A DNA stretch of 64,000 nucleotides from an uncultured bacterium. GTDB lineage: Bacteria; Omnitrophota; Gorgyraeia; Zapsychrales; Aceulaceae. The notes under the pieces are model-generated. The model was not told where the DNA came from. It saw only the letters and a list, made by a program, of their open reading frames with translations, and searched no databases. The translations under genes and the position numbers were made by a program. Shown piece by piece: positions 41,117-63,163 of the stretch. The DNA is taken from the NCBI GenBank assembly GCA_937930175.1, contig CALGLP010000011.1:28776-92775 (forward strand), read 5' to 3'. How positions within the stretch are numbered: position 1 is the stretch's first letter; the number at the start of each line of letters is the position of its first letter.

Positions 41117-41845
41117 TCAAGTCTTATGATAAAGGCCTTTGACAAAATTTATCTTGATGCGCAAAAGATCGCAAAGCATCTTCGTGGCATCCTTAATCGG
41201 ATCAACCTTACTCTGAGGACTATTCACCCAGACCACAGGAACTTCCTTAATGCGCAATCCTTTCAATGTCGCAATGACTAAAATTTCAACATCAAAAGCA
41301 AAGCGATCAATGCGCTGTAAGGCAAAGACAGCTTGCGCTGCCTTTTGACTAAAACACTTAAAGCCGCACTGAGTATCATAAAACCCTTTGAGCACAAGAC
41401 CCCGAACAAAAATATTAAAAATTTTTCCCATGCGATGACGAATCCAGCTTTGCTTCATTTTTACCAAGGACTCTTTAAGCCCGCGTGATCCTATCGCAAT
41501 ATCACAATCGCCCCTCATAACTAATGGCAAAAGTTTCTGAACTTCTTCTATCGGCGTAGAATTATCCGCATCTACAAAAAGAAGATAGTCTCCACAGGCT
41601 TCGCACATGCCCCAGCGGACCGCAAAACCCTTGCCACGGTTGACGTCTGCTTGCAACAGCTTAACCTGCGGATGCGTCTGCGCAAATTTCTTAACAATCA
41701 TAGAGGTTTGGTCACTGCTGGCATCGTCAACAACAATGAGCTCCAAATCTACCCCCAGCCCAAAAGGAAAGGCAGCAATCATTTTAAGCGTATGCTCAAT
41801 ACGCAGTTCTTCATTGTAGGCAGGAATAATAATGGAAACAATCAT
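41117..41845 (-). CDS. Family-2 glycosyltransferase (polyprenyl-phosphate sugar synthase, DPM1/CsbB-like)
   Basis: IIIPAYNEE...VVDDASSDQT...VDADNS DXD-type GT-A motifs. Confidence 0.8.
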   Translation of the reverse strand: MIVSIIIPAYNEELRIEHTLKMIAAFPFGLGVDLELIVVDDASSDQTSMIVKKFAQTHPQVKLLQADVNRGKGFAVRWGMCEACGDYLLFVDADNSTPIEEVQKLLPLVMRGDCDIAIGSRGLKESLVKMKQSWIRHRMGKIFNIFVRGLVLKGFYDTQCGFKCFSQKAAQAVFALQRIDRFAFDVEILVIATLKGLRIKEVPVVWVNSPQSKVDPIKDATKMLCDLLRIKINFVKGLYHKT

Positions 41846-43292: not shown

Positions 43293-44579
43293 CTATCCTG
43301 AAGCGGATTGAATTCCTTGCGCCAGCTCAGGAATAATACCCTTTTTAACGTAAATCGGACGTATTATTTTTCGCAAGATTGAAAACTTGCTCGCAAAACC
43401 CAAAGAGCCCAGGATACAACAAATGCCGCCTAAACATAATGTCAACGGCGCGCCGATCTTGCTGGCAAGACTTCCTGCTGTCAAGCTCCCAAAGGGAACC
43501 ATGCCCATAAACGACATCGTATAAAAACTCATGACCCTGCCGCGCTTGTCTTCCTCAGAAATCGTTTGCAGGATCGTGTTGCTAGCGGCCATTTGAACCA
43601 TCATAAAAAAACCAGCCATGAACACAATACTTAACGAAAACCAAAGAATACGAGAAAATGAAAAAATAATCAGCCCCAAGCCAAACATCCCTGAGGAGAT
43701 CGCAATCATTTTCCCTAAGCCAACAATGCTTTTTCGACTCGCAAGATAAACCGCTCCCGTCAAAGCTCCGGCGCCAGCCATGGCCACAAGCAAGCTTAAC
43801 GTTTGCGGCCCTCCTAAAAAGATATCCCGCGCAAAAATCGGCATCAGAATCTGATACGGCGTACCTAAAAAACTCACGATCCCGAGCAAAAGAAGAATAT
43901 GTCGAATAGGTAAAGACTCGCTGACATAAGAAAACCCTTCTTTGAATTCTGTAACAAAATTAAATTTTTTTGGTTTAGCTTCTTGGGGAATGATGCGCAT
44001 GGCCCAAAGACAAAAGATCACCGGGCCATAGCTTAGGGCATTAATCAGAAAACACACACCTTCTCCGACGGTAGCAATCAAGATGCCCGCGATCGAAGGG
44101 CCAACAAGACGCGCAAGATTAACAATCGAAGAGTTCAAGGCAATCGCATTCCCGAGGTCTTCTTTATTATCCACCATTTCGATCGTAAATGCTTGGCGGA
44201 TCGACATGTCAAATCCATTGACGATTCCAAGAAAAATACTCAGCACGATGATTTGCCATATCACGATTTGGTTGCTTAACACTAAAAAGGCCAACAAAGA
44301 CGCTTGCAGCATAGAACAGACTTGCGTCATAATCAAGGCCCGGCGCTTGGAATAGCGATCCGCCAAAATACCCGCCAGAGGGGAGAGGAAAAATGTCGGG
44401 GCCTGCCCTGCAAACCCTACAACCCCAAGCAAAAAAGGAGAATGCGTCATGCGATAAACCAACCAGCTTAAGGCAATTTGCTGCATCCATGTCCCAACCA
44501 ACGAAAGGCTTTGCCCGATAAAAAAAAGACGGTAATTGCGATTACGTAAGCTACGAAAAATGTTCATCACATCAAACAT
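43293..44579 (-). CDS. MFS transporter
   Basis: 12-TM profile with the MFS_3/EntS-like N-terminal FRSLRNRNYRLFFIGQSLSLVG. Confidence 0.75.
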   Translation of the reverse strand: MFDVMNIFRSLRNRNYRLFFIGQSLSLVGTWMQQIALSWLVYRMTHSPFLLGVVGFAGQAPTFFLSPLAGILADRYSKRRALIMTQVCSMLQASLLAFLVLSNQIVIWQIIVLSIFLGIVNGFDMSIRQAFTIEMVDNKEDLGNAIALNSSIVNLARLVGPSIAGILIATVGEGVCFLINALSYGPVIFCLWAMRIIPQEAKPKKFNFVTEFKEGFSYVSESLPIRHILLLLGIVSFLGTPYQILMPIFARDIFLGGPQTLSLLVAMAGAGALTGAVYLASRKSIVGLGKMIAISSGMFGLGLIIFSFSRILWFSLSIVFMAGFFMMVQMAASNTILQTISEEDKRGRVMSFYTMSFMGMVPFGSLTAGSLASKIGAPLTLCLGGICCILGSLGFASKFSILRKIIRPIYVKKGIIPELAQGIQSASG

Positions 44580-44585
44580 CAGGAC

Positions 44586-45389
44586 CTAGAATCCTTTCCA
44601 TCCGGGTTGTCCCAACTTTTCACCAAGCCTTAACTTGGTAAAAAAATAAAAAAAAGTCGTAGTATCAAAATGAAGCTGTAAGTCCTTTTTATTTTGCTGC
44701 GTCGAGGCATGATCCATGATAGCCCCTGCAAGATCTGCTCGTCCCATATCCATAAAAACTTCTCCAAGCTTAGCAAAAGCCAATCGTCGATCTTCGGTCA
44801 TACGCTGAGAGAGAAAAAAGAGGTCCTGAGCAATAGCCTGATCGCTTGCAACCTGACGCATTGCTGCCTCATTTGCCAGCCTCGCATAAAAATCAAACGT
44901 TGCAGGCATCAAATCAATCGCCTTTTGCAAGGAAATAATCGCTTTCTCATATTTCTTAAGATCAGCATAGACCATCCCTTGGTCCCAATAATGCCAATAA
45001 CAGCTTGGATTAAGCTCAATCGCCTTAGCACACATCTCAAGAGCCTTGTGAGGATCGCCGAGATAATAATAACAATAGCTCATATTTCCATAAACGCTAT
45101 CAAGAGGGCCAAGGAAATCAATAAAGTCCTTATAATATTCAATACCCCACGTTAATTCATAAGGAGTTGGCCTCTGACCGTGGTTTATTCGTTTAACAAT
45201 AGCCTCTTCTGCTCGTCTGGCATACGACAGCGCTGACACCTTAGGGGCCACGGGCTCCTTAAGAAAGAAAAGAAAAAAAACAAATCCTGTGATGGCATAC
45301 AAAGAAAACCACCGTGAAAATAGCTGCCCAAGGGATGAAAAAATCTTCTTTTTCTTCAACCACTTATTATCAGCAATATCAGCCATCAA
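44586..45389 (-). CDS. Membrane-anchored TPR-repeat protein (partner of the upstream YfhO-like gene)
   Basis: N-terminal TM, then TPR repeats (YGNMSYCYYYLGDPHKALEMCAKAIELNP...). 4-nt overlap with the upstream gene. Confidence 0.6.
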   Translation of the reverse strand: MMADIADNKWLKKKKIFSSLGQLFSRWFSLYAITGFVFFLFFLKEPVAPKVSALSYARRAEEAIVKRINHGQRPTPYELTWGIEYYKDFIDFLGPLDSVYGNMSYCYYYLGDPHKALEMCAKAIELNPSCYWHYWDQGMVYADLKKYEKAIISLQKAIDLMPATFDFYARLANEAAMRQVASDQAIAQDLFFLSQRMTEDRRLAFAKLGEVFMDMGRADLAGAIMDHASTQQNKKDLQLHFDTTTFFYFFTKLRLGEKLGQPGWKGF

Positions 45390-47602
45390 AACCTTTCTTC
45401 TAAACGTAGCGGCTGCCTTAAGAATAAAATGATCAAATAAAATAACATGCCAAGGTGTAGAGCTAAAACAAAAAAATAAAAAAGAGCTCCTCCTAGCGGG
45501 GCATAATAAAAAACAAGGACATTCTCGCCAGGAGAAAGAACAACACCTTTAAAAGCAATGTTCGCGCGATAAATAGGCACTCTTTTGCCGTTTAACTTGG
45601 CCTTCCAGTCAGGCTGAAAACTGTCAGTGTAAATAAGAAACTTTTCCTTATCAAAGCGCGTTCTAATCTTAATAGAATTCACATCAAAATCAAGAACCTC
45701 AAAGAGGTCCGATGGCCCCGCAATAGACAAGGCGCGCCCTGCAATATCTTGATTCTTTGTAATTAAGCTTGATCGCAATAGACTTTGTTGAGATCTAAGT
45801 GGCAGATGAACAAGCGCAAGATCCTTGTTTTTCCCAAGAATTTCCTCCATCACAACCAAAGATTCTTTTTCCTTTGCAGCAATATTGACGTGGTCATAGA
45901 GATAAAATTTGTATTTCACATATTGCCTTGCAAGCGAACCAAAATTCCGCATTAAATCATACGACCATCGTGACGGACATCCTGCCCCGACCAAAGGAAA
46001 TCCCGCAGCATCTTTCATTTGAACAAAAGAAGCATGGCTGTCGTAAGCATCATATTTTTCAAGAAAAGGAGGACGCTCAAACGAAAAACTTGGACGCCCT
46101 GATAGATATACATAATTTTGCAGAACACGGTCTTTGTTGAAATCCATATTTTCCAGATCATCGTGAAAACGCCACATAACCTCAGCGGGCTGAGTCACAA
46201 CGCATAGGATCAACAACGCAAACCATAACAATCGTGGAAATCGACGCTTAAGAACAAAAAGACTAAAAAAAAGAGCACTTAGAACAATAGTTATCTGCGT
46301 TGAAAGAAGCATCGGCTGGCTTTGCAAGAAAAACCAAATCCCTGCATGGATAAGAAAAATCGATCCCAGGCGTAAATAATGAGGAATGCTAAGCTTGTCC
46401 TCAAGAAGAGATTTTAATTGTAGAGCAACAAACAAAATAAAAACAGGCCCTATAACAAAATAAAATGTTCCCAAGCCATGAATAAGCTTAAAATACGAAA
46501 AATGTTGATAAAAGAATTTATATACAGAAGTCTGGCTTCCAAGGCTGATCAAGAACAGCACCAAGGCTAACAAAAATACGAGGAATGCCTTTTTCTTTAT
46601 TCGATAGAAAAGACCCAGCAATAAAATACAATAAACAAAAAGAGAAAAATAAGGGGTTGAATAACAAGCAGATATCTTGTCAAGGTCAAGAAATAAACGC
46701 TTTGTCATCATCTGAGCGGTCCCGCAGAGACCAGCAGCTTTCTCGTAAGAAACATCGGCTCCACCCCCATAGGCTTCTTGATCCAAAACTTTTCTTTCTC
46801 GCACGACAACATCACCTCTCTTAATAATACTATACCCTTGGAAAGAAGTGACCAAAAGCAATCCTGCTGCCAAAGAGCAAAAAACAACCAAACAATGATG
46901 CTTGCGAACAAACAAAAGCATGGAAGAGAAGTCCTTGGGAACCTGACGCGCATAAAACACGAAATAAAGAATGCTTACAATAATGAAAACAGTTAGCCAG
47001 TAAAAGGGCAAATAGCAGTTCGCAATAATCATAAACGTAAACACCAGTCCAACAAAGAAACGCTTTTCCCATGTTTGCCAAAAGCGAACAAGAAAATAAA
47101 AAAACCATATTGCAGGAACACTGACAAAAAGACTGTTTGGGCTAGAAAAAATGTGCATTCCTTGAGAAGAAAAAAGAAGCATCAAAAAAGCAATATAAGC
47201 AATCGTGGCATCTTTCAACAAAGCCTTAACAAGCAGATAGAAACCCAGGACACCAACAAAGAAATACCCAAGATAGGTCCAAAGGAAAGCTAAATAAGAG
47301 CTTATTCCTACTTGCCGAAGAATCCCAATAAGCAACCACATAGGATTAAAAGGCCCGAAAGCCAAGAAAGAAGACAAAAGAGGGAAACCAAAGAACAAAA
47401 AAGGACTCCAGAGTGCAAAAATACCCATGGATAAATTATCAATAAAAAATTTAATTATGACATAAAAACTGCTTGTATCGCCGACCATAATGACTCGACC
47501 GGTCACGATTGGATAAAAAAGAAAGAGCCAGAAAACAAAAGGGAGCAGGAACTTCAAGGCCCGCCTTGCCACATTAAGAATTTTCCTCGATTCTTCGATC
47601 AC
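45386..47602 (-). CDS. YfhO-like polytopic membrane protein (putative GT-C fold glycosyltransferase), copy 1
   Basis: About 480 aa of TM helices, a periplasmic domain of about 230 aa, and a terminal TM with FKGVVLSPGENVLVFYYAP, which resembles the YfhO C-terminus. Confidence 0.45.
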   Translation of the reverse strand: MIEESRKILNVARRALKFLLPFVFWLFLFYPIVTGRVIMVGDTSSFYVIIKFFIDNLSMGIFALWSPFLFFGFPLLSSFLAFGPFNPMWLLIGILRQVGISSYLAFLWTYLGYFFVGVLGFYLLVKALLKDATIAYIAFLMLLFSSQGMHIFSSPNSLFVSVPAIWFFYFLVRFWQTWEKRFFVGLVFTFMIIANCYLPFYWLTVFIIVSILYFVFYARQVPKDFSSMLLFVRKHHCLVVFCSLAAGLLLVTSFQGYSIIKRGDVVVRERKVLDQEAYGGGADVSYEKAAGLCGTAQMMTKRLFLDLDKISACYSTPYFSLFVYCILLLGLFYRIKKKAFLVFLLALVLFLISLGSQTSVYKFFYQHFSYFKLIHGLGTFYFVIGPVFILFVALQLKSLLEDKLSIPHYLRLGSIFLIHAGIWFFLQSQPMLLSTQITIVLSALFFSLFVLKRRFPRLLWFALLILCVVTQPAEVMWRFHDDLENMDFNKDRVLQNYVYLSGRPSFSFERPPFLEKYDAYDSHASFVQMKDAAGFPLVGAGCPSRWSYDLMRNFGSLARQYVKYKFYLYDHVNIAAKEKESLVVMEEILGKNKDLALVHLPLRSQQSLLRSSLITKNQDIAGRALSIAGPSDLFEVLDFDVNSIKIRTRFDKEKFLIYTDSFQPDWKAKLNGKRVPIYRANIAFKGVVLSPGENVLVFYYAPLGGALFYFFVLALHLGMLFYLIILFLRQPLRLEERF

Positions 47603-47753
47603 AAAAACCCTTTCCTTAAAACGTCAACGATCTATCCTTCCCAACAAAAAACTATCTCAAAATATTAAAGATCACTCAAGACTTAAGTTCTAGGAAGTCG
47701 TGGCATCCGCGTTGACAACGCATAACCCTCTTTATCAAATCTTCTCTAGCAGC

Positions 47754-48575
47754 CTAATTTCTTTGTTTCTCTTGGGAAGCCTTTGAGAAAACAAGAATCT
47801 TTGCGAGCAAAGGACCAATCAATGAATCAAAATGCACCCTTTCTTTGGGATCCATCCTCTCCCACCAATAACGATCCATTTGATCAAGAAACTTTTTGAG
47901 AACTGCTTTCTGCTGCAAAGGATCCTCTGAAAAAGAAACACTAGGCAAGGTTCCTGATAAGAGCTTACTAGCTTTATCAAAATCCCCAAGAAAATAATAA
48001 CTTCTGACAATCTGAACTTCAGCCAAGAGTTTATCTCGTTCTAATTCAAAAATAAGTTTAAACAAGAAACTGTTTTTTGCCTCATCGCTAAACTCAAAGG
48101 CGGGAAGCACAATAATTTCCTTATAGTAGTCTAGGGTTTGACTCATCTTTTGTATCGCTTGCTCCAGCGCAAGAATAGCCTTCCTGTATTCTTTTTGATG
48201 AAAAAAAATCATCCCCTTGTCCCATACGTAAGTATAAATATTCGGATTAAGCTCAATAGCTTTATCATAAGCTTTATGCGCTGCAGAGTACTGTTTTAAA
48301 TAAAAGCGACAAAACCCCATGTTTCCGTATGCATAATCAAGGCTCGGAAACAGAATCAAAAGTTCTTCATAATAATTAATAGCTCGGAGATAGCCTCTTT
48401 CGTTAACTTCTTTGCGCCCCTGCACGCCCTCAAGAATGGTTATTTCTGCGTGTTGAAGGCACCCCAGCGTAACCATATCAATGTCAAAGGGCTGATGATC
48501 GGCGATCCAGAAAAGAACAAAGAAAAATAACAAATAAATCCATAAATATCTTTTAAAAAAGTTAATTTTCATCAC
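47754..48575 (-). CDS. Membrane-anchored TPR-repeat protein, paralog of 44586-45389
   Basis: YAYGNMGFCRFYLKQYSAAHKAYDKAIELNPNIYTYVWDKGM aligns with the other TPR protein. 14-nt overlap with the upstream YfhO-like gene. Confidence 0.6.
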   Translation of the reverse strand: MMKINFFKRYLWIYLLFFFVLFWIADHQPFDIDMVTLGCLQHAEITILEGVQGRKEVNERGYLRAINYYEELLILFPSLDYAYGNMGFCRFYLKQYSAAHKAYDKAIELNPNIYTYVWDKGMIFFHQKEYRKAILALEQAIQKMSQTLDYYKEIIVLPAFEFSDEAKNSFLFKLIFELERDKLLAEVQIVRSYYFLGDFDKASKLLSGTLPSVSFSEDPLQQKAVLKKFLDQMDRYWWERMDPKERVHFDSLIGPLLAKILVFSKASQEKQRN

Positions 48576-50805
48576 ACCCTTTATGTCTTTTTGTTCTCTC
48601 CATAATAAAATCCTTTAGAAATAAGAAAATAGTCCATAAAAACATTCCCAAACAAAGATAAAAAACAAAGAAAAAGAAGGCTACTCCACCCAAAGGAGAA
48701 TAAACAAGATAAAGGGTGTTCTCCCCGGCGGGAAGAAAAATACCTTTAAAGGCAATATTAGCCCTATAAAGCTTTTCTTGGCGACCATTAACAAAAAGTT
48801 TCCAATCCTGATGATAACTATCCGTATAAACCAAAAACTTTTCTTCTTTAAAATTTGTTTTTATCTTGATGGCATTAACATTAAAATCTGTGACGACGAG
48901 CTCCTCACTCTTCACTTTTTTAATGGTCGCTTGGCCAATAGACTCAAGCTGCGAATCACGTAAAACCATTTTCTGAATCGCTGGATCCTTAAGGTCATCC
49001 TCGATAAAAGCTAGATTTAAATTCTCCTGAAAAACCTTTCTTGGTAATACTAAATTGTCAACCAAGGGCTCAGAGATCATCGCAACATGATCATAAAGAT
49101 AAAATTTATTCTTAACATACTTCTCAGCAATCTCTTGAGGAATATAAGAAAAAAACTGCCCTGCCCACCGACACGGGTGATCAATCAACCCAAAAAACCG
49201 TAAATAGTCTTTTTGCTGAAGACGATATTTGTGATAATTGTCATCCGTAGGAGGTCCTTCAGGATCAGGTCGGACATAAGCAAATCGAACACCCTGAGAT
49301 TCTACTAAAATATAATTCTGTATGTATTCCCTGTTGTTAAAAGGGTCCTTCGTATAATGCCAAAGGGCTTCAATAGGCTGAATAACCGCGCAAACGATTA
49401 AAAAAGGAAAAAGGAGTTTCTGAACGAATTTCTTCTCTTTAAGAAAGAAAAGAACATAAAAATAAAAAAAGCTCATCACAATCGTTATGTAAGAAGAAAC
49501 CAGATTATTTCGTTGCCATACAAGAAAAGCAAAAAAAGATCCATGCGTTAAAAGCAAAATGAAGAATTTTGCTATCCTACTAGTCAAGAACTGCTCTTGC
49601 ACAATCCTTTGCCATTGCAAAACAGAAAAAAGAATTCCTACGCCTATCAAAACCATCCAGAAACACGACACAGAATGAATAACAGAAAAAAAAGGTAAAA
49701 ATCGATAGAATAATAAATAGAGTCCGCCAGGAGGCCCTAAAAGAATAAAAAACAATAAAATAAGCAGAATAAAAAGCAAAAAAGATTTACGGGTCATGCG
49801 ATTAAAGGCACCCAACAAAGAAATAAGAAAAACAAAGACGGGAACAAACGGATGCTCATAACGCCATCCTCTTAAATTTAAAGAAGAAAGAAGCTCCTTA
49901 GGAAGCTTTCTAAGATTGCAGGACGAAAAAACAATCTCCGATGGCTTCATTTCTGCACCTCTTTCCAACCAAATATCTTTTTGTGATCGATGCCTATCGA
50001 TAAAAACGACTTCTTTATTTTGAGACATTTGAAAAGCCCTAAAAGGAGGCAACAATGCCATTGCCAATGAAAAAGAACAGAAAAGAACAAGAAAAAACCT
50101 TTTCCGAGCAAAAGAAGCCAGAGCCAAAACAGTCCCGCATAATCCGCTGAAGTCAGATATCGCAGCAGCAAAAATCAAGAAAAAACAAATCGTTAAAAGA
50201 TAAGGAGGGAAATAAGATGTTGCCACAATCATAAGCGTAAAAATTAATCCAACAAATGCTTTGGGCTCTTGAGACTGACAAAAACGCAAACCAAAGTAAA
50301 AAAACCAGATCATGGGAACATAAATAATTATTGTATTAATCAATCCCTGAAAGACATAGGAAAAAGAAAAGAGCATAATAAGAAAACTTAAATAAGCAGC
50401 GCGTTCATCTCTAAAGAAAGTCTTCGCAAAGAAATAAAATCCAAGCATGCCAATAAAAAGATAGGTAAAGCCTGTGTAGACGAAAGCAAGATAATAGGAA
50501 AGGCCAGATCGATGAAGGATCAGCATCAACAGCCAGATGGGATTAAAAACACCAAAAAGAACGCTTGTTATAAGAGAAGGGTGTCCCCAATCCAAAAAAG
50601 GATTCCACAGAAGAAAAACGCCTTGCTCTAAATTCTCAATAAAAACTTTTACAGCAGCATAAGTGGCAAAGGAGTCACCACAAAAGAAGGCTTGACCGCT
50701 GAACATGTCTCGAAAAAGAAAAAGCCAAATAGCTAATGGAAGCAAGAACGGCAAGGCCTTGTAAACCAAACCTAGCCATTTACTCTCTGAAAAGAAACTT
50801 TTCAT
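48562..50805 (-). CDS. YfhO-like polytopic membrane protein (putative GT-C glycosyltransferase), copy 2
   Basis: Clear paralog of 45386-47602 along its whole length (for example FKGIFLPAGENTLYLVYSPLGG vs FKGVVLSPGENVLVFYYAPLGG). Confidence 0.45.
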   Translation of the reverse strand: MKSFFSESKWLGLVYKALPFLLPLAIWLFLFRDMFSGQAFFCGDSFATYAAVKVFIENLEQGVFLLWNPFLDWGHPSLITSVLFGVFNPIWLLMLILHRSGLSYYLAFVYTGFTYLFIGMLGFYFFAKTFFRDERAAYLSFLIMLFSFSYVFQGLINTIIIYVPMIWFFYFGLRFCQSQEPKAFVGLIFTLMIVATSYFPPYLLTICFFLIFAAAISDFSGLCGTVLALASFARKRFFLVLFCSFSLAMALLPPFRAFQMSQNKEVVFIDRHRSQKDIWLERGAEMKPSEIVFSSCNLRKLPKELLSSLNLRGWRYEHPFVPVFVFLISLLGAFNRMTRKSFLLFILLILLFFILLGPPGGLYLLFYRFLPFFSVIHSVSCFWMVLIGVGILFSVLQWQRIVQEQFLTSRIAKFFILLLTHGSFFAFLVWQRNNLVSSYITIVMSFFYFYVLFFLKEKKFVQKLLFPFLIVCAVIQPIEALWHYTKDPFNNREYIQNYILVESQGVRFAYVRPDPEGPPTDDNYHKYRLQQKDYLRFFGLIDHPCRWAGQFFSYIPQEIAEKYVKNKFYLYDHVAMISEPLVDNLVLPRKVFQENLNLAFIEDDLKDPAIQKMVLRDSQLESIGQATIKKVKSEELVVTDFNVNAIKIKTNFKEEKFLVYTDSYHQDWKLFVNGRQEKLYRANIAFKGIFLPAGENTLYLVYSPLGGVAFFFFVFYLCLGMFLWTIFLFLKDFIMERTKRHKGCDEN

Positions 50806-50970
50806 CTTGCCTTTCCATTATTTCTTTAAAACGCTAGAAATTAAAATTAATTTTAACATGATTCTCGGGTCGGAGCAAATAAATACAGCCCTAAAAAAAC
50901 CAGAAAGGCTAAAAAACATTACCATATCTTAAGAAATATGGTTTAATAATAGCATCTCGCAAATACCTTT

Positions 50971-52473
50971 ATGAAAATACTTCTCCTTTATCCACAATAC
51001 ACGTATATTGGTAAATTCGACTCAAGAGCCCTGTCCATGGCCTTGACGTATTTAGGCTCTGTTCTAAAATCTCGCGGCCATAAAGTCACGATCTATAACG
51101 CCTCCCTAGGACCTATCATCAATACCGGAGGGCTCTATCGATACGGCGCAAGCGAAGAAGAGACAAAGGAGTTCATTGCTCGCACCCCCTTCGACCTTGT
51201 TGGTATCACTTGTGCTATTTCCTCTCAATGGAAGTTCACAGCTGCGCTGGCCAAACAAGTCAAAGACGTCTCTAGCAAGGCGATCGTCGCAGTCGGTGGC
51301 CTCTACCCAACATACCACTGGAAAGAATGCCTAGGCGAAAATACTTCCGTCGATGTCATCTTCCTTGGCGAAGCAGAGCTTTCCTTTGCTGAATTTGTAG
51401 ACCATCTCTCTTGTGGGCAAAATCTCGCAGGCTCTTGCCAACCCCTTGATGGTGTTGCCTGGAAAAGCCAAGGCCAAATCTATCACAATCCAAAGACGGA
51501 ATACAATCACCATCTCGACAGCCTTCCTTTTCCAGATTGGCATTTGATCGACCTTGAAAAACAATTTTCTGTACAAAAAAAACTTATTCATTTGCCAGCC
51601 CGATCCCTTCCCATCTTGTCTTCCAGAAGCTGTCCGAACAGATGTTCTTTCTGCAATATGTATATCACGCATGGATCACGCTGGCGCCCACGATCTGCTG
51701 AAAATGTCGTTCAAGAAATCGACTATTTAATAAAAGAGTTCAACATTAATTATTTTTACTTTATTGATGATAATTTTAGCTTTGATAATGCACGCGCTAA
51801 GCGCATTTGTCGCCTCATCATAGAACAAAAACTTCGCATCCGCTATACGTTCCCCAATGGGTTAAGTATCAAGACCATTGACAAAGAATTAGTTGAGTTG
51901 ATGAAAGCGTCTGGGTGCTTAGGCGTCTGCCTTGCTGTTGAGTCTGGAAGCAACCGTATCCGCAATGAGATTTACAAAAAGAATCTCAAAGAAGAAGATG
52001 TTTTGCGCGTCTGCCGCCTATTTCATGAATTCAAGATTCCCACACAGGTCTTTTTTATGATAGGAGCCCCAACCGAAACAGAGGAAGATGTCAATCAAAC
52101 AAAAAAGCTAATTGCGCGCCTACCCATGGACCTTGCATCTGTTTCTGTTTATACACCTTATCCTGGGACAGCCTTATATGAGCAGTGCCTAAAAAATGGC
52201 TGGATTTCTGAGAACCCCCTAGAAGAAGCTGACACGATGGACTTCTTTTCTCCTGTTTTACAAATGAAAAACCCAAGCCCTAATGATGTCCGACGATGGC
52301 AACTTGAACTCTACATGACCTTCTTAACCACACACTTCTTTGCGGTCATCAGAAAAATGTTTTCACCGGAGAGTATTTTAAATCTGGAAAATTTCCTACG
52401 CTTCACAAACATTGTCAAACATCACTGCAGACTCTTTGTAAGCTCTTTATTGCACCAAAAACCTGCCCCCTAA
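50971..52473 (+). CDS. B12-binding-domain radical SAM enzyme (class B)
   Basis: N-terminal B12-binding Rossmann-like region and the radical-SAM Cx3Cx2C motif (SRSCPNRCSFCNM). Confidence 0.85.
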   Translation: MKILLLYPQYTYIGKFDSRALSMALTYLGSVLKSRGHKVTIYNASLGPIINTGGLYRYGASEEETKEFIARTPFDLVGITCAISSQWKFTAALAKQVKDVSSKAIVAVGGLYPTYHWKECLGENTSVDVIFLGEAELSFAEFVDHLSCGQNLAGSCQPLDGVAWKSQGQIYHNPKTEYNHHLDSLPFPDWHLIDLEKQFSVQKKLIHLPARSLPILSSRSCPNRCSFCNMYITHGSRWRPRSAENVVQEIDYLIKEFNINYFYFIDDNFSFDNARAKRICRLIIEQKLRIRYTFPNGLSIKTIDKELVELMKASGCLGVCLAVESGSNRIRNEIYKKNLKEEDVLRVCRLFHEFKIPTQVFFMIGAPTETEEDVNQTKKLIARLPMDLASVSVYTPYPGTALYEQCLKNGWISENPLEEADTMDFFSPVLQMKNPSPNDVRRWQLELYMTFLTTHFFAVIRKMFSPESILNLENFLRFTNIVKHHCRLFVSSLLHQKPAP

Positions 52474-52493
52474 GCCCATGCGCACATAAAGAG

Positions 52494-54599
52494 CTACCGT
52501 TCATTGCGACGGAAGACAGCCAAATACCTTCCCTTCTGGCAAAGAGAATACTTTTCCTCAATATACTGTAAAAGCAGTTGATGCTCCATCTGCTGCGTAG
52601 CCAAAAATCTTGCGAAACTACTCAACACAATCTTTTCATCAATAAAAATATATGGTGGCTTCTTCATTTCTAAAGAATCAAAAAAGAAAGAAACTCTTTG
52701 TGGAGTAAATAAAAATAGCGGATCAAAAATCTCTTTTCCAAAAGACTGCGGAGAAAGCAAGTTAGGATAATAGAGCAATGGCTTTCGATTTGCCTTCATA
52801 AGAATTTCTGCAGCCATTTCTGAAATAATACAAGCTTCTTCTTGAGGAGCAACAAAGCGAGCAACAAGAGCAGCATCCTCATCTAGAATAAGCGTTTCCT
52901 TCATCTGAGTCACGTAGCTTAGAACTTCTTCCTTGTGCATAAAATAAAGATTAGGATATTGAAGAAACCGCTCCGAAGTCACGATGATCAATAAGGAGCT
53001 CAAAGCAACAAAAAGTGCAAGCACTTTTCGCCATTTTAATTGAACAAGGCCAGCGATCCGACTCGCCCAAAAACATAAAATATAAACAAGCGGCAAAATA
53101 ACCGCAAGATAGCTAGAAGGGGCAGAGCGACAAATATAATAGCTATACAAACTAAGGCCATAAATGCTCAATATCGCAAGAAAGAGATTATGGTTGTTTG
53201 CAGGCTTACGTACCATGCCGGCACACATCACGCAAAGATTAAACAGATAGACAACAGGGATCAAGCATCCAAAAAAGAAATATAGAAATTCTTTTTGCTG
53301 AAGGCCACAATAGATGGGAAGGGCTCCAAAGCCAGCTAAAAATAACTGACCCGTTTCGCCAAGATTCTTCCAAAATAATGGATTCAAAGCATGTCCTTTG
53401 CTTAACATTTGATAACAAACAAATGCGATAGATAAAGGAAGCAAAAACACAAACGACAAAGACCCAATCCATCGAGGCCAAGAACAGGGCTCCCCTCTAA
53501 GAATTTTGATAAAAACGAGCAAAAGGATACAACAAAAAAAAGAAAAGAATAAATAGACGCCCGTATCAAAAATATAAGGCAAGGAAAGCCCAACAACCAC
53601 AGCAGAAAAAATAAGATATTTCCAATGAGACGTTTTTAGATAAAACCAAATAAAGATAAAGAAAAAAATATCAAAAAAATAGCGAATAATCGTTCCGCTA
53701 GGAAAAATCCAGATATTATTCATAACGGGAGGATGGCAAAACATTTGCAAATGGATAGCCCACAAAACCCCAAGCGCAGGGATAAAGAATCCCTTGATCC
53801 AAGCGCGGAGAAGAACATAAACAAAAAGATAATAAATAATCGTCATACAAGATAAAACTCGAAAAACACTTTCATAGCCAAAACCCCCGCCGGCCTGGGC
53901 AAGACGACTCACCAAAAAAGGCATTCCAACACCATACTGGCTAAAAACATCGATACCGAGGATGCATCCCTTAAGGGATGCAAACCCCGGAGCAATAATG
54001 AACGATTGCCAGTGGTTAAATTGATCATAATGAAAGATTCTGGCAATCATTCCAGGAGCATCAGGAACCCAAAGAATTGTCCCAATGGCAATCGGAACTA
54101 TGATGTCGCCAACCTTAGAAAAGGTTGACACCCAACGATCTAAAATCTTATTAATTTCCTTAAGGGATGGGTGGAAAATAATGAAGAAGATGCGCAACAA
54201 CACAATACACAGCAACAAAATTTCTGCCCATCGAGGAAAATGGTATAAAAATAGCTTAAAAACAACATACAGGGCAAAAACTAGCAAGGCCCCATCGATG
54301 ACAACCACTTCTTTAAGACGCTCGAGAAGCTCTGTGGTTATACTTTTCTTCCTGAGCAAAAACATGAGCATCATCTGAGCCAAAATAATTGATACAATAA
54401 AAATTCCATAAAGCACAATCTCCCTCTCTGGAAAAATCGTATATTGAAAGGATATAATTTGGATAGGGCTTACAATAGGAACCAGGCTTGAAATTAGCGA
54501 AGCAATAAATAAAACCTGAAAACCAAAAAAAATAGAGAGAACAGAAACAAAAAACGTGCGCTGGTTTTCAAATGTTAAGATTTTCTTTTCGTCAATCAT
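52494..54599 (-). CDS. Large polytopic membrane protein of unknown function (candidate GT-C-like transferase), copy A
   Basis: About 530 aa of TM helices plus a C-terminal soluble domain of about 170 aa; no catalytic motif recognised. Confidence 0.35.
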   Translation of the reverse strand: MIDEKKILTFENQRTFFVSVLSIFFGFQVLFIASLISSLVPIVSPIQIISFQYTIFPEREIVLYGIFIVSIILAQMMLMFLLRKKSITTELLERLKEVVVIDGALLVFALYVVFKLFLYHFPRWAEILLLCIVLLRIFFIIFHPSLKEINKILDRWVSTFSKVGDIIVPIAIGTILWVPDAPGMIARIFHYDQFNHWQSFIIAPGFASLKGCILGIDVFSQYGVGMPFLVSRLAQAGGGFGYESVFRVLSCMTIIYYLFVYVLLRAWIKGFFIPALGVLWAIHLQMFCHPPVMNNIWIFPSGTIIRYFFDIFFFIFIWFYLKTSHWKYLIFSAVVVGLSLPYIFDTGVYLFFSFFCCILLLVFIKILRGEPCSWPRWIGSLSFVFLLPLSIAFVCYQMLSKGHALNPLFWKNLGETGQLFLAGFGALPIYCGLQQKEFLYFFFGCLIPVVYLFNLCVMCAGMVRKPANNHNLFLAILSIYGLSLYSYYICRSAPSSYLAVILPLVYILCFWASRIAGLVQLKWRKVLALFVALSSLLIIVTSERFLQYPNLYFMHKEEVLSYVTQMKETLILDEDAALVARFVAPQEEACIISEMAAEILMKANRKPLLYYPNLLSPQSFGKEIFDPLFLFTPQRVSFFFDSLEMKKPPYIFIDEKIVLSSFARFLATQQMEHQLLLQYIEEKYSLCQKGRYLAVFRRNER

Positions 54600-54687
54600 A
54601 GTAAAAACTCCTTAAATTCAAAGCGTGTCGTCTTTCGCTAGAGACAATATGATCAAAAACTCACCTATCTTGTCACAAATAATAAAA

Positions 54688-56787
54688 TTACAGACCTGGC
54701 TTTCTTTTAAGAGCAACTAACAACTCCCCTTGACCAACCAAATCATATTTCTCTCTTAAATACTGCGTCAGCCTTAAAAAAGACTCCTGGGAAACACATC
54801 CTAGAATAGATGCCTCACCAACGAGAAATCGTCCTTCAATAAAAACATATTGGGGTTTTTCTTGTTCAAGACTGAGGAACATTCTATCAACCCTTTTCTG
54901 AGTAAACAAAAAAAATGGCGCGAAGAATAACGTACGAAAAGAATGGGTTGGCAAAATATTAGAATAGTAAAGAAAAGGCTTGCGATTTGCCTGCATCAGA
55001 AAAGTCGGCGCCATAGAAGCGAACAAGCACACCTTATCGCTTGGAGATGTAAAACGTGTAATAAGATCAACATCTTGGTCAATCGCCATAAATTCGCTCA
55101 TTAGCTTCTTATCTTTGTCTGCTTGCTCTCTGTTGACATTGCCGATATGCGGATAATCCAAAAACAACCTTGACGTCAACAAAATCAAAATTGAAGCAAT
55201 AAAAATATAAACAAGAAGGATTCTTCTTGTTTTCTCATTTAAGACCATAACAACCTGATCAAGCCAATAGCACAAAATGCATGCCAACGGCACACTCACG
55301 GAAAAATAACTTGAAGGTGCCGAACGGCAAACAAAATACTGATAAATGCCCAGACCATAAATACTTAAAACAAGAGCTAAAAGACCTTGACGACAACCTC
55401 TTTTTGCAACGAAAATACATGCAGTCCCAAGATAAACCAAAGGAACGAGACAAGCAATAACAAAGTAGGCATACTCTTTCATCGCAATACCATCAAAGAG
55501 CGGCATGGCCCCTAATCCTGCCGCAAAGAAATCAAGCATTTCTGTGAAATTTGATAAGAAAACAGGCTTCAAAAGGTTGTCCCCAATGGCCATCCAATAC
55601 AAAGAAAATGCGACAGCACAAGGGAGGACGCAACAGACACCAAAGAGCACGCGATCTTTTGAATAAGCCAGAAATGTCACTCTTTGCTCAGCAAAAAGAA
55701 CAAAAGTAGCCAAATATGCATAAAACGCCAGAGCTAAAGAAACGCCTGTATCTAAAACATAAAATAATGCCATCCCGACAACCACGCTAGCGATGAGAAG
55801 ATAACGAAAAGAGCGATAACGCAAGTGCAAAGCGAGAAAAAGAAAACAAATAATATCGAAAAAATAACGAACAACCGTTCCGCTAGGATAAATCCAGACA
55901 ACATGAACAGCCTCAAGAAAGCTAAACATCTGAAATTTGATTGCCCAAATGACACCAATGACAGCCACAAAAATATTCTTTAACCACAGCCTCAGGAAAA
56001 CATAGACCAAAATAAAATACATAATACACATCGATAAAAAAATAACAGCAAGATGCTCGTAAGTAAACCCACCGATGAGCCGCGAACACTGTCCAATAAA
56101 AAGCGGCATTCCAATTCCGTATTGACTGAAGATATCCACATCGAGTCTGCATCCCTTAAGCGCCGCAAAGCCTGGCTCAATAATAAAAGCCTGCCAATGG
56201 TAAAACTTGTCATAGCGAAAAATTTGCGCTAACAGCCATGGGACATCCGGAACATAAATGCAGGCAGAAACGAACAGCAAGACAAGAAGATCAACACCCC
56301 AAGTATATTTTTCGCAGAAAAGCCCAATCTTTTCTATGAACGAATACAGAAAGCGATAACTGATCTTTGATATTCCAGCCACCAACAAAAAGAAATAAAA
56401 ATAATATTTTATGCCTGTTGCAAAACCAGAAAGAGCCAATTTAAAGATCATAAAAAGAACAAGAAGCAAGATTGCCCCATCCATGACAACAAAATGAGCG
56501 AGTTTAGAGCTCAACTCTTGGCTTTGCATTTTCTTTCGAAATAACCATAGGCAAATGACCTGACAAAGAAAAACAGAAAGGACAAAAACGCGATATAGCA
56601 ACATTTCCCGCTCAGGACGCATATCTGACTGATACACAAGAATTTGAACCGAAGGCTTTAGCGGGATAAAAGTAAAAACAAAAGACACGATCACAAGAAC
56701 CTGGATGCCGATGATGATCGACAAAACAGATATAAGAAAGATATTAATGTTTTCTGGAGTTAAAAGATCCTTGAATAACTTAGGCAT
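54688..56787 (-). CDS. Large polytopic membrane protein, paralog of 52494-54599, copy B
   Basis: Collinear similarity at the N-terminus (FLISVLSIIIGIQVLVI vs FFVSVLSIFFGFQVLFI) and the C-terminus (ANRKPFLYYSNILP vs ANRKPLLYYPNLLS). Confidence 0.35.
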   Translation of the reverse strand: MPKLFKDLLTPENINIFLISVLSIIIGIQVLVIVSFVFTFIPLKPSVQILVYQSDMRPEREMLLYRVFVLSVFLCQVICLWLFRKKMQSQELSSKLAHFVVMDGAILLLVLFMIFKLALSGFATGIKYYFYFFLLVAGISKISYRFLYSFIEKIGLFCEKYTWGVDLLVLLFVSACIYVPDVPWLLAQIFRYDKFYHWQAFIIEPGFAALKGCRLDVDIFSQYGIGMPLFIGQCSRLIGGFTYEHLAVIFLSMCIMYFILVYVFLRLWLKNIFVAVIGVIWAIKFQMFSFLEAVHVVWIYPSGTVVRYFFDIICFLFLALHLRYRSFRYLLIASVVVGMALFYVLDTGVSLALAFYAYLATFVLFAEQRVTFLAYSKDRVLFGVCCVLPCAVAFSLYWMAIGDNLLKPVFLSNFTEMLDFFAAGLGAMPLFDGIAMKEYAYFVIACLVPLVYLGTACIFVAKRGCRQGLLALVLSIYGLGIYQYFVCRSAPSSYFSVSVPLACILCYWLDQVVMVLNEKTRRILLVYIFIASILILLTSRLFLDYPHIGNVNREQADKDKKLMSEFMAIDQDVDLITRFTSPSDKVCLFASMAPTFLMQANRKPFLYYSNILPTHSFRTLFFAPFFLFTQKRVDRMFLSLEQEKPQYVFIEGRFLVGEASILGCVSQESFLRLTQYLREKYDLVGQGELLVALKRKPGL

Positions 56788-56806
56788 GATAACGCTGACA
56801 ATCCTT

Positions 56807-57334
56807 TTATTTAAAATAATGATTTATGAGGCTTGCCACAAGGTCTCTAAATGAGAAAAAATTAAAAACTGGCTTTATCCTATATTGACCGCACTCTTGA
56901 TAAACTTCCCCTGACGCAAGCAATCTCTCTAAGCGTCTTTCAAGAATCTCCTGATCACTATAACGCATAAGCAAGGCGTGAATCGTAATACCTTGCGGCG
57001 ATACTTTCCCTATCTCATAAAGAAGGCGGATCCGAACCGAAGTTTCATTGGGACCACAAAAACAAAGGATGAAAAGAACGGCTGCGAGTCCATAAAGAAA
57101 CTCCGCAACCAAGACAAAGAGAATCTTTTCTCCTATGCCCCACACCCCCCCTGGTAATCTGCTTAAAAGAATAAAACTTGTGACAGCGTTAAAGACTCCT
57201 CCCGCCACAAGCAATCCCATCAACCAAGGAAAGATTTTCTTTGATGACGCAAACCGAAAGAAAAGAAAATAAAGAAAAAGATAGAAACCAAAGGAAACTA
57301 CGGCGCTATTAACAATCAAGGAATCAACACTCAC
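56807..57334 (-). CDS. Small membrane protein (3-4 TM + soluble C-terminal tail), unknown function
   Basis: Hydrophobic N-terminal two-thirds and a charged C-terminal domain of about 60 aa. Confidence 0.35.
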   Translation of the reverse strand: MSVDSLIVNSAVVSFGFYLFLYFLFFRFASSKKIFPWLMGLLVAGGVFNAVTSFILLSRLPGGVWGIGEKILFVLVAEFLYGLAAVLFILCFCGPNETSVRIRLLYEIGKVSPQGITIHALLMRYSDQEILERRLERLLASGEVYQECGQYRIKPVFNFFSFRDLVASLINHYFK

Positions 57335-57349
57335 GCCTCATCCCCCTTC

Positions 57350-57874
57350 TTATCCACCGATCGGTCTTCCTGAAAGCTTTTGATACCAATAAAGACAATG
57401 CAATATAAGATTTCCCTTAGGCGTTGTTCGACAAACATCTTTTTCTAAAAAGATCCAGGAGCGCTTCTGCAAATCTTCAATGCGGGGCAAGATAAAATTA
57501 GCTTGCTTCGTGCGACTTAAAAGCTCCTCGTAGGATAAACCATCTTGCTCTTTCAAGAAATTAAGAATCCGCTGCGTAGGACTATACACATCAGCCGTTA
57601 CAAAGAATAAATAATACAAGACATGACAAAGAAAATAGAGATACGCACCACTAGAAAAAAGCCGTAAAGCCCACAACGAAAAAGACGGCAAAGAGCTGCT
57701 AATCATATTTCTAAAATAAACAGAATCAGCACCCATGTAAACAAAGAAGAAAATACCCACAAAGCAGAAAAAGGATGCTTGTCGTACAGAAGAATGGGAA
57801 ATGAATCTACACAAAAATAAGTGCATCACAATAGCCGCAAACAGACAACCCAAGCTTATCAAAAGTGAAAACAT
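57350..57874 (-). CDS. Small membrane protein, same architecture as 56807-57334 (probable paralog)
   Basis: Same length (174 vs 175 aa) and the same TM-then-soluble-tail layout. Confidence 0.35.
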   Translation of the reverse strand: MFSLLISLGCLFAAIVMHLFLCRFISHSSVRQASFFCFVGIFFFVYMGADSVYFRNMISSSLPSFSLWALRLFSSGAYLYFLCHVLYYLFFVTADVYSPTQRILNFLKEQDGLSYEELLSRTKQANFILPRIEDLQKRSWIFLEKDVCRTTPKGNLILHCLYWYQKLSGRPIGG

Positions 57875-57877
57875 AAA

Positions 57878-58618
57878 CTATTCCTTAGCGTTTAGACAAA
57901 ATTTATTCTTTGACGAGGAACTCGCCTTGACAACAACAATGATTGTCTTGATGACACTTATCAAGCTTCGCAAAGTAAGAGCTTTGGATGACCCCTGTTT
58001 TCTTCCAGAATGCTCGAGGGCAATCGTTGCATAACTACAGCCTGATTTTAAGAGCTTTACAAGACATTCAGCTCCAATCGCCAGACCATCGGATTCTAAG
58101 GTAATTGAGCGCGCCAAGGATGTCTTACAAAGAAAAGCTCCCGTATAATAGTTAAGCTTTAATCCTGATATTGAATTAATCAATACGACAAAGCATCTTG
58201 ATAAAATTCGACGCAAAAGACTTCGCTTTTCAGCAGTCTTCTCATTGGTAAAAATAACATCTGCCGCACCCGCTCTTTGAACTAGCGCTCTTAATGTTTC
58301 ACCTGACATGTCATTATCACCAGGAAAAACGCTAACATATGTTTTTTGGGCTAACGAAACTCCCTTGCGATAACAATAACCATAGCCTTGATTTGTCTTA
58401 TTGTGAAAAACTTTTACCCGAGCATCGCTTCGAGCTACTTCTTCAGCAAGAAGGCCCGTCTTATCGCTGCTCCCATCATTAACAATAATAATCTCGTAAT
58501 CATCAACAATCCCTGCTATGGCTCCCTGGACAGATTGAACAGCCTGGCAAATATTCTTTTCCTCATTTAATGCCGGAATAATGACACTAAGATTTTTTGT
58601 TATTCGCATTTGCTCCAT
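57878..58618 (-). CDS. Family-2 glycosyltransferase (GtrB/DPM1-like polyprenyl-phosphate sugar synthase)
   Basis: SVIIPALNEE...IIIVNDGSSDKT...FPGDND GT-A motifs. Confidence 0.8.
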   Translation of the reverse strand: MEQMRITKNLSVIIPALNEEKNICQAVQSVQGAIAGIVDDYEIIIVNDGSSDKTGLLAEEVARSDARVKVFHNKTNQGYGYCYRKGVSLAQKTYVSVFPGDNDMSGETLRALVQRAGAADVIFTNEKTAEKRSLLRRILSRCFVVLINSISGLKLNYYTGAFLCKTSLARSITLESDGLAIGAECLVKLLKSGCSYATIALEHSGRKQGSSKALTLRSLISVIKTIIVVVKASSSSKNKFCLNAKE

Positions 58619-60422: not shown

Positions 60423-61166
60423 TTATTTCTTTCCCACGCCTATGGCAAACAAATAATGCGCCATCTTTGAATATCCTGTATGCACAACTTCATCATTCAT
60501 AGAAAAAATAAAACAATTCTTAAAATACTTCTGCACAAGACAACGTAGGCTTTCTTCCGTCTTTAAATTAATATGTTGACTGCTACTTCTTTTTGTTGCA
60601 TAACGTGCTGCGGCCTTGTTTGGAGTCCCAACAACCAAAACGCCTGCATCCACGAGAGCCTTGCACGTATTTTCCATAAAACCCTTTTCTTGCTTAGGCT
60701 CCAAATGTTCTAAAACATCAATATGAAAACACGCATCATATTGACCATCAATCGTCTCTCGCGAGGCATCAAGACATTGATAACTGACATTCTTGATAAA
60801 TGGATATCTCTGCGCATTACCTTTGATGTTACGTGGTTCCCAATCAATACAGTGCAGATGTCCCACGGCCTGAGCCATTATAGGAATGCCAAATCCGTCA
60901 CCGCAACCAATTTCGAGGACACGCTTTTTATCCTTGAGCATTTTAGAACAAAACTTATACCGCGACAAAACAAAACACATATGTTTTGGATCATGGATCA
61001 TGCTATACGACGTCCATGGCCCAAGCTGAACCTGTTTGGTACTAAATTGATCCTTGGTCGCTTGATTGTGCAATTTCCAAGCAAGTCTATCTTTTTTCTG
61101 CATGCCGCGTTCCCCCTTGGCTCCAATCATTCTTAGATCTCCGCAGTTTATACATGTCCCCATCAC
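60423..61166 (-). CDS. Class I SAM-dependent methyltransferase
   Basis: VLEIGCGDGFG motif I. The annotated start overlaps the upstream SDR by 80 nt; the true start is probably the internal MQKKD Met. Confidence 0.7.
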   Translation of the reverse strand: MMGTCINCGDLRMIGAKGERGMQKKDRLAWKLHNQATKDQFSTKQVQLGPWTSYSMIHDPKHMCFVLSRYKFCSKMLKDKKRVLEIGCGDGFGIPIMAQAVGHLHCIDWEPRNIKGNAQRYPFIKNVSYQCLDASRETIDGQYDACFHIDVLEHLEPKQEKGFMENTCKALVDAGVLVVGTPNKAAARYATKRSSSQHINLKTEESLRCLVQKYFKNCFIFSMNDEVVHTGYSKMAHYLFAIGVGKK

Positions 61167-61938: not shown

Positions 61939-61951
61939 AACGCTTATTAAC

Positions 61952-63139: not shown

Positions 63140-63163
63140 CCATCATCCTGTCGTAACAAGAAA

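Follow-up and report, generated by a model that had tools for sequence, protein, structure and literature searches.

The DNA analysed here, called the window throughout, is a stretch of 64,000 nucleotides (nt) from an uncultured bacterium of the phylum Omnitrophota (GenBank assembly GCA_937930175.1, contig CALGLP010000011.1, positions 28,776 to 92,775). It carries two consecutive copies of a two-gene module. In each copy the gene for a large polytopic membrane protein (A1, A2) is followed by a gene for a small, membrane-anchored tetratricopeptide repeat (TPR) protein (T1, T2). A preliminary description made from the sequence had proposed a tandem duplication of a YfhO-like, GT-C-type membrane protein with a translationally coupled TPR protein, a split counterpart of the eukaryotic TMTC mannosyltransferases. 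The proposal made here, with moderate confidence, is that A1/T1 and A2/T2 are old paralogs of one another and that each is a two-subunit glycosyltransferase facing the periplasm, of a kind typical of Omnitrophota. The genes discussed are collected in Table 1 in window numbering, which is used throughout; all four A and T genes are read from the minus strand.

Table 1. Genes of the window that are discussed in the text
Feature	Position	Strand	Size	Description
A1	48562-50805	-	747 aa	Polytopic; divergent YfhO superfamily, GT-C-like predicted fold; beta-sandwich followed by a final membrane helix at the C-terminal end
T1	47754-48575	-	273 aa	N-terminal membrane anchor and TPR repeats; start within the end of A1
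A2	45386-47602	-	738 aa	Paralog of A1 from an older sister subclade
T2	44586-45389	-	267 aa	Paralog of T1 with an N-terminal membrane anchor and TPR repeats; start overlaps the end of A2
GT2b	57878-58618	-	246 aa	Family 2 glycosyltransferase (GT2, GT-A fold) resembling polyprenyl-phosphate sugar synthases, without C-terminal membrane helices
S2	57350-57874	-	174 aa	Small hydrophobic membrane protein; no Pfam or NCBIfam match
S1	56807-57334	-	175 aa	Three hydrophobic segments and a soluble C-terminal domain of ~80 residues; no Pfam or NCBIfam match
B2	54688-56787	-	699 aa	Polytopic membrane protein, paralog of B1; no Pfam or NCBIfam match
B1	52494-54599	-	701 aa	Polytopic membrane protein, GT-C-like predicted fold; no Pfam or NCBIfam match
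B12-binding radical SAM enzyme	50971-52473	+		Pfam B12-binding and Radical_SAM; divergent from A1
MFS_3 transporter	43293-44579	-		EntS-like; Pfam MFS_3 E-value 4e-59; start 6 nt past the T2 stop
Distal GT2	41117-41845			GT2 glycosyltransferase without C-terminal membrane helices
Putative sugar-modification genes	58623-63940	-	five genes	Upstream of GT2b

The four open reading frames lie where the preliminary description had placed them and form two collinear paralog pairs. A1 and A2 share 37% identity in BLASTP (36-37% across comparisons) over 746 columns (E 2e-135) and align from end to end. T1 and T2 are 30% identical over 204 residues (E 2e-27), and the alignment includes the N-terminal hydrophobic anchor and regions beyond the TPR core. 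The junction sequences bear out the overlaps of 14 nt (A1/T1) and 4 nt (A2/T2) reported earlier, which are counted from the first GTG or TTG start; with the adjacent ATG starts at 48572 and 45386 the overlaps shrink to 11 nt and 1 nt. At the A1/T1 junction (...GGGTGTGATGAAAATTAA), a GTG at 48575 and the ATG at 48572 both sit inside the end of A1 with AAGGG ahead of them, and at the A2/T2 junction (GAAAGGTTTTGATGG) the use of ATG yields the arrangement TGATG. A Shine-Dalgarno-like AAGGG or GAAAGG precedes both ATG codons, and the stop-start overlaps are compatible with translational coupling. The two modules are separated by a gap of 151 nt between T1 and A2. The MFS_3 gene is probably part of one transcript with A1-T1-A2-T2, and its membership in the system is uncertain. 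Promoter and terminator scanning gave counts that were not above those in shuffled sequence; one promoter-like site upstream of A1, at 50975-50946, was the sole usable lead.

The large membrane proteins and their TPR partners

A C-terminal Pfam match, a full-length profile alignment, structure prediction and conserved residues assign A1 and A2 to the YfhO superfamily, as divergent members with a predicted GT-C-like fold. The Pfam YfhO profile (PF09586, gathering score 28.5) matches A1 with 34.3 bits over residues 625-706 only, i.e., roughly its last 80 residues, and the same C-terminal-only pattern is repeated in relatives P0004, P0007 and P0008. NCBIfam gives no match for A1 or A2. A much longer relation emerges with hhalign, where A1, A2 and eight homologs, taken together as a profile, match the profile of the more typical PF09586 carriers P0010-P0017 at a probability of 100% (E 2.4e-39) over 662 columns (query 27-728, template 27-773) with 15% identity, with the caveat that the template proteins were originally picked up as weak matches to A1. 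Both groups have an LWNP..G.P motif and an Asp that directly follows membrane helix 1 (D44 in A1).

Searching the PDB sequences with the A-family profile found nothing. For an AlphaFold2 model of A1 (predicted local distance difference test [pLDDT] 71, predicted template modelling [pTM] score 0.76), the top 18 PDB matches returned by Foldseek are all GT-C enzymes (STT3, PglB, EmbB and AftD; best E 4.4e-4). The relations to YfhO and to GT-C enzymes put forward in the preliminary description are therefore upheld. The likeness to TMTC proteins stands as an analogy of architecture but not as family membership: neither A1 nor A2 has a PMT_2/DUF1736-type Pfam match at E <= 0.1, the best folds are STT3/PglB rather than PMT, and PMT structures are absent from the 50 Foldseek matches listed for A1.

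Conserved residues tie both copies to the superfamily. D44, part of a GD motif in the first extracytoplasmic loop, is found in A1, A2 and 86% of 84 family members, and it aligns with an Asp that is invariant in canonical YfhO proteins. Among the other positions conserved across the 84 members, A1 and A2 both keep W67, P69, G74, N88, P89, R271, D572 and D662, along with W668, N683, K687 and G688 of the C-terminal beta-sandwich, which is the most conserved part of the protein. At position 377 (A1 numbering, in an FRN motif), 90% of the 84 members have Arg, and A1 and A2 have His.

The downstream proteins are membrane-anchored TPR proteins, as had been claimed. T1 matches the Pfam families TPR_2 (51.9 bits) and TPR_1 (47.1 bits) and T2 matches TPR_8 (50.2 bits) and TPR_2 (50.1 bits), all above the gathering score and each protein with two matched stretches. 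A single hydrophobic segment near the N-terminus is present in 57 of 68 members of the T family. The family has 2-3 TPR motifs, of which only two core motifs are conserved family-wide. Its consensus runs from the anchor through a YY..P helix to 'A...LG.CYY.LG....A...Y.KA....P..FW..YNLG.IY'.

The topology of the pair can be approached through naturally fused forms. In fusions L044 and L096, the beta-sandwich of A is followed by the last A helix, a charged linker, the T anchor and the TPR domain, and this order recurs, with a shorter TPR part, in P0063, P0115 and P0150. Because two helices separate the TPR and beta-sandwich domains in these fusions, both domains should face the same side of the membrane, and homology with YfhO and other GT-C enzymes would put them outside the cytoplasm. 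T1 and T2 have basic residues ahead of the anchor and acidic or neutral residues behind it, which fits a cytoplasmic N-terminus.

Linkage and age of the module in Omnitrophota

Scanning one genome per GTDB species with the A profile identified 78 loci, all labelled as Omnitrophota or as 'uncultured Planctomycetales' metagenome-assembled genomes. For a census of linkage, open reading frames (ORFs) were called in all loci and searched with hidden Markov models built from A, T and GT2 alignments. Together, 73 non-redundant loci and the window contain 88 A genes, and 84 of these genes had enough downstream sequence to evaluate. A T-family gene lies directly downstream on the same strand in 71 of the 84 (85%), mostly overlapping or only a few bases away, with one of the 71 being a full fusion. 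The 3166 ORFs include 84 T matches, 70 of which are the T genes next to A. Of the 13 exceptions, about 6 have an anchored but divergent TPR-like ORF after A.

The census loci were chosen for holding A, so the association was also examined in reverse, in a metagenome scan with patterns from a six-sequence T alignment, which returned 80 loci. Every full-length T gene, i.e., one whose match includes the N-terminal anchor, has A directly upstream (10/10). The remaining 70 loci match the generic TPR core only, and none of them carries A. In both directions, then, the T genes of relatives are found with such membrane proteins rather than independently of them. At least two full fusions exist (1075 aa in L044; 1065 aa in L096, which came from the reverse scan) beside the three short-TPR fusions, and the earlier picture of a split, two-polypeptide arrangement is a fair one for the separate genes of the window. 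Pairwise identities among A proteins correlate with those among T proteins (r = 0.83), a value reached in 0 of 500 Mantel permutations. TPR genes are absent next to three distant canonical YfhO genes. The A-T pairing is the rule in Omnitrophota, near-obligate and accompanied by fusions and co-inheritance, which suggests that the enzyme needs a dedicated partner subunit.

Variations on the pairing are found in several loci. Two tandem T genes after a single A, or an extra T gene nearby, occur in L081 (8222-10224), L087 (8143-10111), L029 and L020, so the TPR partner itself can be multiplied. Beside a distant A homolog in L007 (2680-7647), and also in L008, a tandem pair of 535-aa genes is found together with a gene of 564 aa, and none has a Pfam match on record. 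The gene after A in these two loci encodes a polytopic membrane protein, not a TPR protein, and the A protein is extended at its C-terminus by a short stretch that contains one more hydrophobic segment and resembles the short ORF after A in L038.

The duplication in the window is old. A1 is 46-48% identical to P0001 and P0002, and A2 is 46% identical to P0003; T1 shows 39-41% identity to the T partners of P0001 and P0002, the closest relatives of A1. A phylogeny had been proposed for dating the two copies, and a neighbour-joining tree separates them into distinct subclades, with A1 grouping with L001/L004 and A2 with L011/L012/L002. Those loci have one A-T module each. A recent tandem duplication is ruled out because A1 and A2 are each nearer to genes of other genomes, with single modules, than to each other (37%), and the low protein identity within the pairs (37% and 30%) leads to the same conclusion. 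On these comparisons, the split between A1 and A2 would be older than these lineages, or the two modules would have joined later. The tandem order A-T-A-T is also found in L020, L037, L043, L058 and L059, as recent sister copies in L037 and L043 and as an old pair shared by L020 and L058. An A-profile search of a representative library returned 526 cluster representatives below E 1e-30, and multiplication of the module is a recurring theme in Omnitrophota.

Neighbouring genes and the donor side

The preliminary description had assigned the donor-making role to the distal GT2 gene at 41117-41845, and this assignment is probably incorrect. A GT2 gene of 234-238 aa stands directly ahead of A in the closest relatives (L001, L004-6), and a GT2 gene abuts A in L001, L004, L065 and L071. 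GT2b shares 43% identity with the adjoining GT2 of L001 and L004. The distal GT2 is ~31% identical to the A-linked GT2 of relatives, over part of its length only, and lies beyond two transporter genes (MFS and CitMHS); it was set aside as the main partner. Because GT2b better matches the GT2 that travels with A, it is the probable donor-making partner, and the distal gene may encode a second candidate donor synthase. The best solved relatives of GT2b are GtrB (5EKP, E 9e-11), ArnC and DPMS, with weak E-values of 1e-10 to 1e-6; the same three are the best or near-best solved relatives of the distal GT2, again with weak E-values.

The operon of relatives reads GT2-S2-S1-A-T, and the GT2-S2-S1-A order is kept in L013, L019, L046 and L079. 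Homologs of S2 occupy the same place between GT2 and A in four other genomes at 28-34% identity. In the window, the B2/B1 pair and the divergent B12-binding radical SAM gene are found between S1 and A1. The S1 and S2 proteins may act as an anchor for the helix-less GT2 or as a flippase.

B1 and B2 are 38% identical to each other (E 1e-176) and have no sequence relation to A1 or A2. The top 33 Foldseek PDB matches of a B1 model (pLDDT 69.7, pTM 0.76) are all GT-C enzymes (STT3, DPY19, AglB, ArnT, Pmt4, AftA, PglB and ALG9; best E 4e-5). B2 is presumed to share the GT-C-like fold from its similarity to B1, and the two appear to belong to an unannotated GT-C-like family. B homologs directly follow A-T in L019 and A in L079. 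Neither this second tandem pair nor the S1/S2 genes figured in the preliminary description. A metagenome contig with a B1 homolog (L088, 471-16757) has seven consecutive same-strand genes for proteins of 692-909 aa with no Pfam match on record; after this run come genes for a sugar C-methyltransferase-like protein and a GT2.

The best NCBIfam matches of the B12-binding radical SAM enzyme (P-methyltransferase-like, BchE and HpnJ) are all far below the cut-offs. Relatives of it are found in the L002 and L004 clusters, and it probably modifies a sugar or a small molecule. Upstream of GT2b are genes for an acetolactate-synthase-like thiamine diphosphate enzyme (599 aa), a class I methyltransferase, a short-chain dehydrogenase/reductase, a class I/II aminotransferase and a pyruvate-dehydrogenase E1-beta-like protein, the last extending toward the window end; none of the five reaches an NCBIfam cut-off. 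Comparable sets in the clusters of relatives include radical SAM/SPASM, split transketolase, TylF-type and epimerase genes. The upstream genes may direct the synthesis of a heavily modified sugar, or form a pathway to an unusual sugar or small-molecule substituent.

Base composition shifts across this part of the window. G+C content is 0.36-0.40 over ~44000-58000 and 0.42-0.46 elsewhere, and a plus-strand AT skew of +0.17 to +0.31 falls precisely across the A, T and B genes. These shifts may reflect minus-strand genes for membrane proteins rich in Phe, Leu and Ile or a separate origin of the block.

Proposed mechanism, alternatives and known systems

In the proposed mechanism, A, as a GT-C enzyme of the YfhO superfamily, would use a sugar carried on polyprenyl phosphate to glycosylate an acceptor located outside the cytoplasmic membrane. 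The lipid-linked donor would be made at the cytoplasmic face by GT2b, with S2 and S1 perhaps helping as anchor or flippase and the sugar probably coming from the upstream modifying enzymes. T, held by its one N-terminal helix with the TPR domain on the beta-sandwich side of the membrane, would be a dedicated partner subunit that most likely binds or positions the acceptor or holds the complex together. It is a candidate for acceptor binding because it directly follows the enzyme in about 85-90% of sampled copies and is sometimes fused to it. Several transfer specificities would be available to the cluster through its two A/T copies and the B1/B2 pair. The teichoic acids of Gram-positive bacteria, which are known YfhO acceptors, would generally not be expected in Omnitrophota. 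The enzyme activity of A, its donor and acceptor, and the function of T are all predictions from homology and gene context.

Several observations weigh against this scheme. The activity of the A subfamily is itself a predicted function. The Pfam match of A2 (27.2 bits) falls under the gathering score, and the matches of both A1 and A2 cover just positions ~745-827 of the 835 in the PF09586 profile. The structural matches of A1 come from a model of medium confidence and have template modelling scores (TM-scores) of only ~0.3. On the donor side, GT2b lacks the membrane helices of GtrB/CsbB-type enzymes and resembles them weakly, and it is ~7 kb from A1 across a stretch that includes a gene on the opposite strand. 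No GtrA/GtcA-type flippase was seen in the window, where S1 was the one hit of a hydrophobicity screen of ORFs of 90-200 aa; the gene for a flippase could lie in another part of the genome. The positive-inside rule is indecisive for the topology of the T family as a whole, with 2.66 Lys and Arg residues before the anchor and 2.76 after it. Finally, the beta-sandwich of A could bind the acceptor without T.

This last point leads to an alternative that we consider somewhat unlikely, in which A recognises the acceptor through its beta-sandwich and T is an assembly or stability factor or a periplasmic scaffold to envelope machinery such as export systems or outer-membrane parts. The strong conservation of the beta-sandwich suits such a role, as do short local structural matches between the C-terminal region of A1 and the carbohydrate-binding region of AftD; domains of this kind in large GT-C enzymes may bind the acceptor (PMC8035078). 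The TPR part of T is small, with two core motifs alone conserved, and T1 and T2 have weak NCBIfam matches to the scaffold-type TPR proteins PilW, BamD, LapB and Tgl. Linkage, fusion and co-inheritance, however, suit the partner-subunit mechanism equally well, there are no outer-membrane export genes adjacent to the module, and none of the observations puts T beside export machinery. At the other extreme is a bolder form of the mechanism, which we regard as speculative and unlikely. It would make A-T a two-subunit protein glycosyltransferase in which an exchangeable TPR subunit picks the protein acceptor, a split bacterial counterpart of TMTC/TMEM260 that, with the B family and S1/S2, has been multiplied in Omnitrophota into a large programmable repertoire for surface glycosylation.

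It is quite improbable that A is instead an en-bloc transferase or polymerase of the oligosaccharyltransferase or ligase type using polyprenyl-diphosphate oligosaccharides. The oligosaccharyltransferases STT3 and PglB are the best structural matches of A1, a YfhO-like family is tied to STT3/PglB in sequence space by Durairaj et al. 2023 (PMC10584680), and further glycosyltransferases such as GT9 are encoded in the neighbouring clusters of relatives. Yet the conserved GT2 neighbour has monophosphate sugar synthases (GtrB, ArnC, DPMS) as its best solved relatives, characterised YfhO enzymes take single sugars linked through a monophosphate (PMC8035078), and neither an initiating phosphoglycosyltransferase nor a Wzx-type flippase was seen among the genes checked in the 39-64 kb region. 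That A and T have left glycosylation altogether, for example as a structural or transport membrane complex that keeps a GT-C-like scaffold, seems very improbable indeed. The very low sequence identity to any characterised enzyme (15% in the hhalign comparison) and the His at position 377 would allow it, but both copies keep the first-loop Asp and other superfamily motifs, and A/T genes are consistently embedded in clusters with sugar-modification and GT2 genes.

The partner-subunit mechanism bears on the question of how YfhO-type GT-C enzymes choose their acceptors, for which the TPR protein is a concrete candidate partner subunit. Many copies of the module are found in Omnitrophota, a phylum known almost solely from metagenomes. 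Together with the unannotated B1/B2 family and S1/S2, the module points to an extensive and so far unstudied system of envelope glycosylation.

The best-supported model is a variant of the multi-component transmembrane glycosylation known from Firmicutes. There a GT2 enzyme loads a sugar onto polyprenyl phosphate, the product is flipped, and a YfhO-type GT-C enzyme carries out the transfer outside; a 2021 review speculated that this final transfer could need a second, acceptor-binding protein (PMC8035078). Like the CsbB/GtcA/YfhO systems of B. subtilis, S. aureus and Listeria (PMC8035078, PMC5836110), the system described here has a YfhO-superfamily GT-C protein beside a GT2 that resembles polyprenyl-phosphate synthases, the A profile aligns with PF09586 proteins over its full length, and transfer presumably takes place outside the cytoplasmic membrane. 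Unlike them, it has an A protein so divergent that Pfam recognises only its C-terminal end, resides in an Omnitrophota host, nearly always has a membrane-anchored TPR protein downstream of A or fused to it, has S1/S2 in the place of a nearby GtrA-type flippase, has a GT2 that lacks membrane helices in the window, and is accompanied there by the B family.

A second useful comparison is with the streptococcal Pgf/PgtC2 system (PgfS, PgfM1, PgfM2), which also combines YfhO GT-C proteins with a GT2 and has two YfhO paralogs in one operon (PMC12041528). YfhO enzymes are known to act on teichoic acids and on Ser/Thr-rich protein regions, the latter glycosylated by YfhO-family enzymes such as these (PMC12041528), and extracytoplasmic protein regions of this kind would suit a TPR partner. 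Pgf/PgtC2 is described without a TPR subunit, and the GT2 genes of the window match the NCBIfam PgfS model far below its cut-off. TMTC1-4 and TMEM260 (PMC7801869, PMC10214176) likewise join a GT-C membrane domain to non-cytoplasmic TPR repeats, as the fused A-T proteins of L044 and L096 do. They belong to another GT-C family, however. In addition, the A proteins contribute a beta-sandwich and a further membrane helix ahead of the TPR part, T is limited to 2-3 TPR motifs, and A and T are separate genes in the window.

By its description, A also resembles 'Component 27', a large uncharacterised bacterial family that is labelled YfhO, stands apart from reference YfhO proteins and is related to STT3/PglB; a TPR partner is not mentioned in the accessible part of the paper (Durairaj et al. 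2023, PMC10584680). A literature search found no paper that links YfhO to a TPR partner, and an Omnitrophota genome preprint mentions neither YfhO nor glycosylation. The A-T system is a real, conserved and previously undescribed variant of multi-component transmembrane glycosylation as far as its genes are concerned, with a function predicted from its relatives, and it is set apart from the Firmicutes systems by the TPR protein that accompanies the enzyme.

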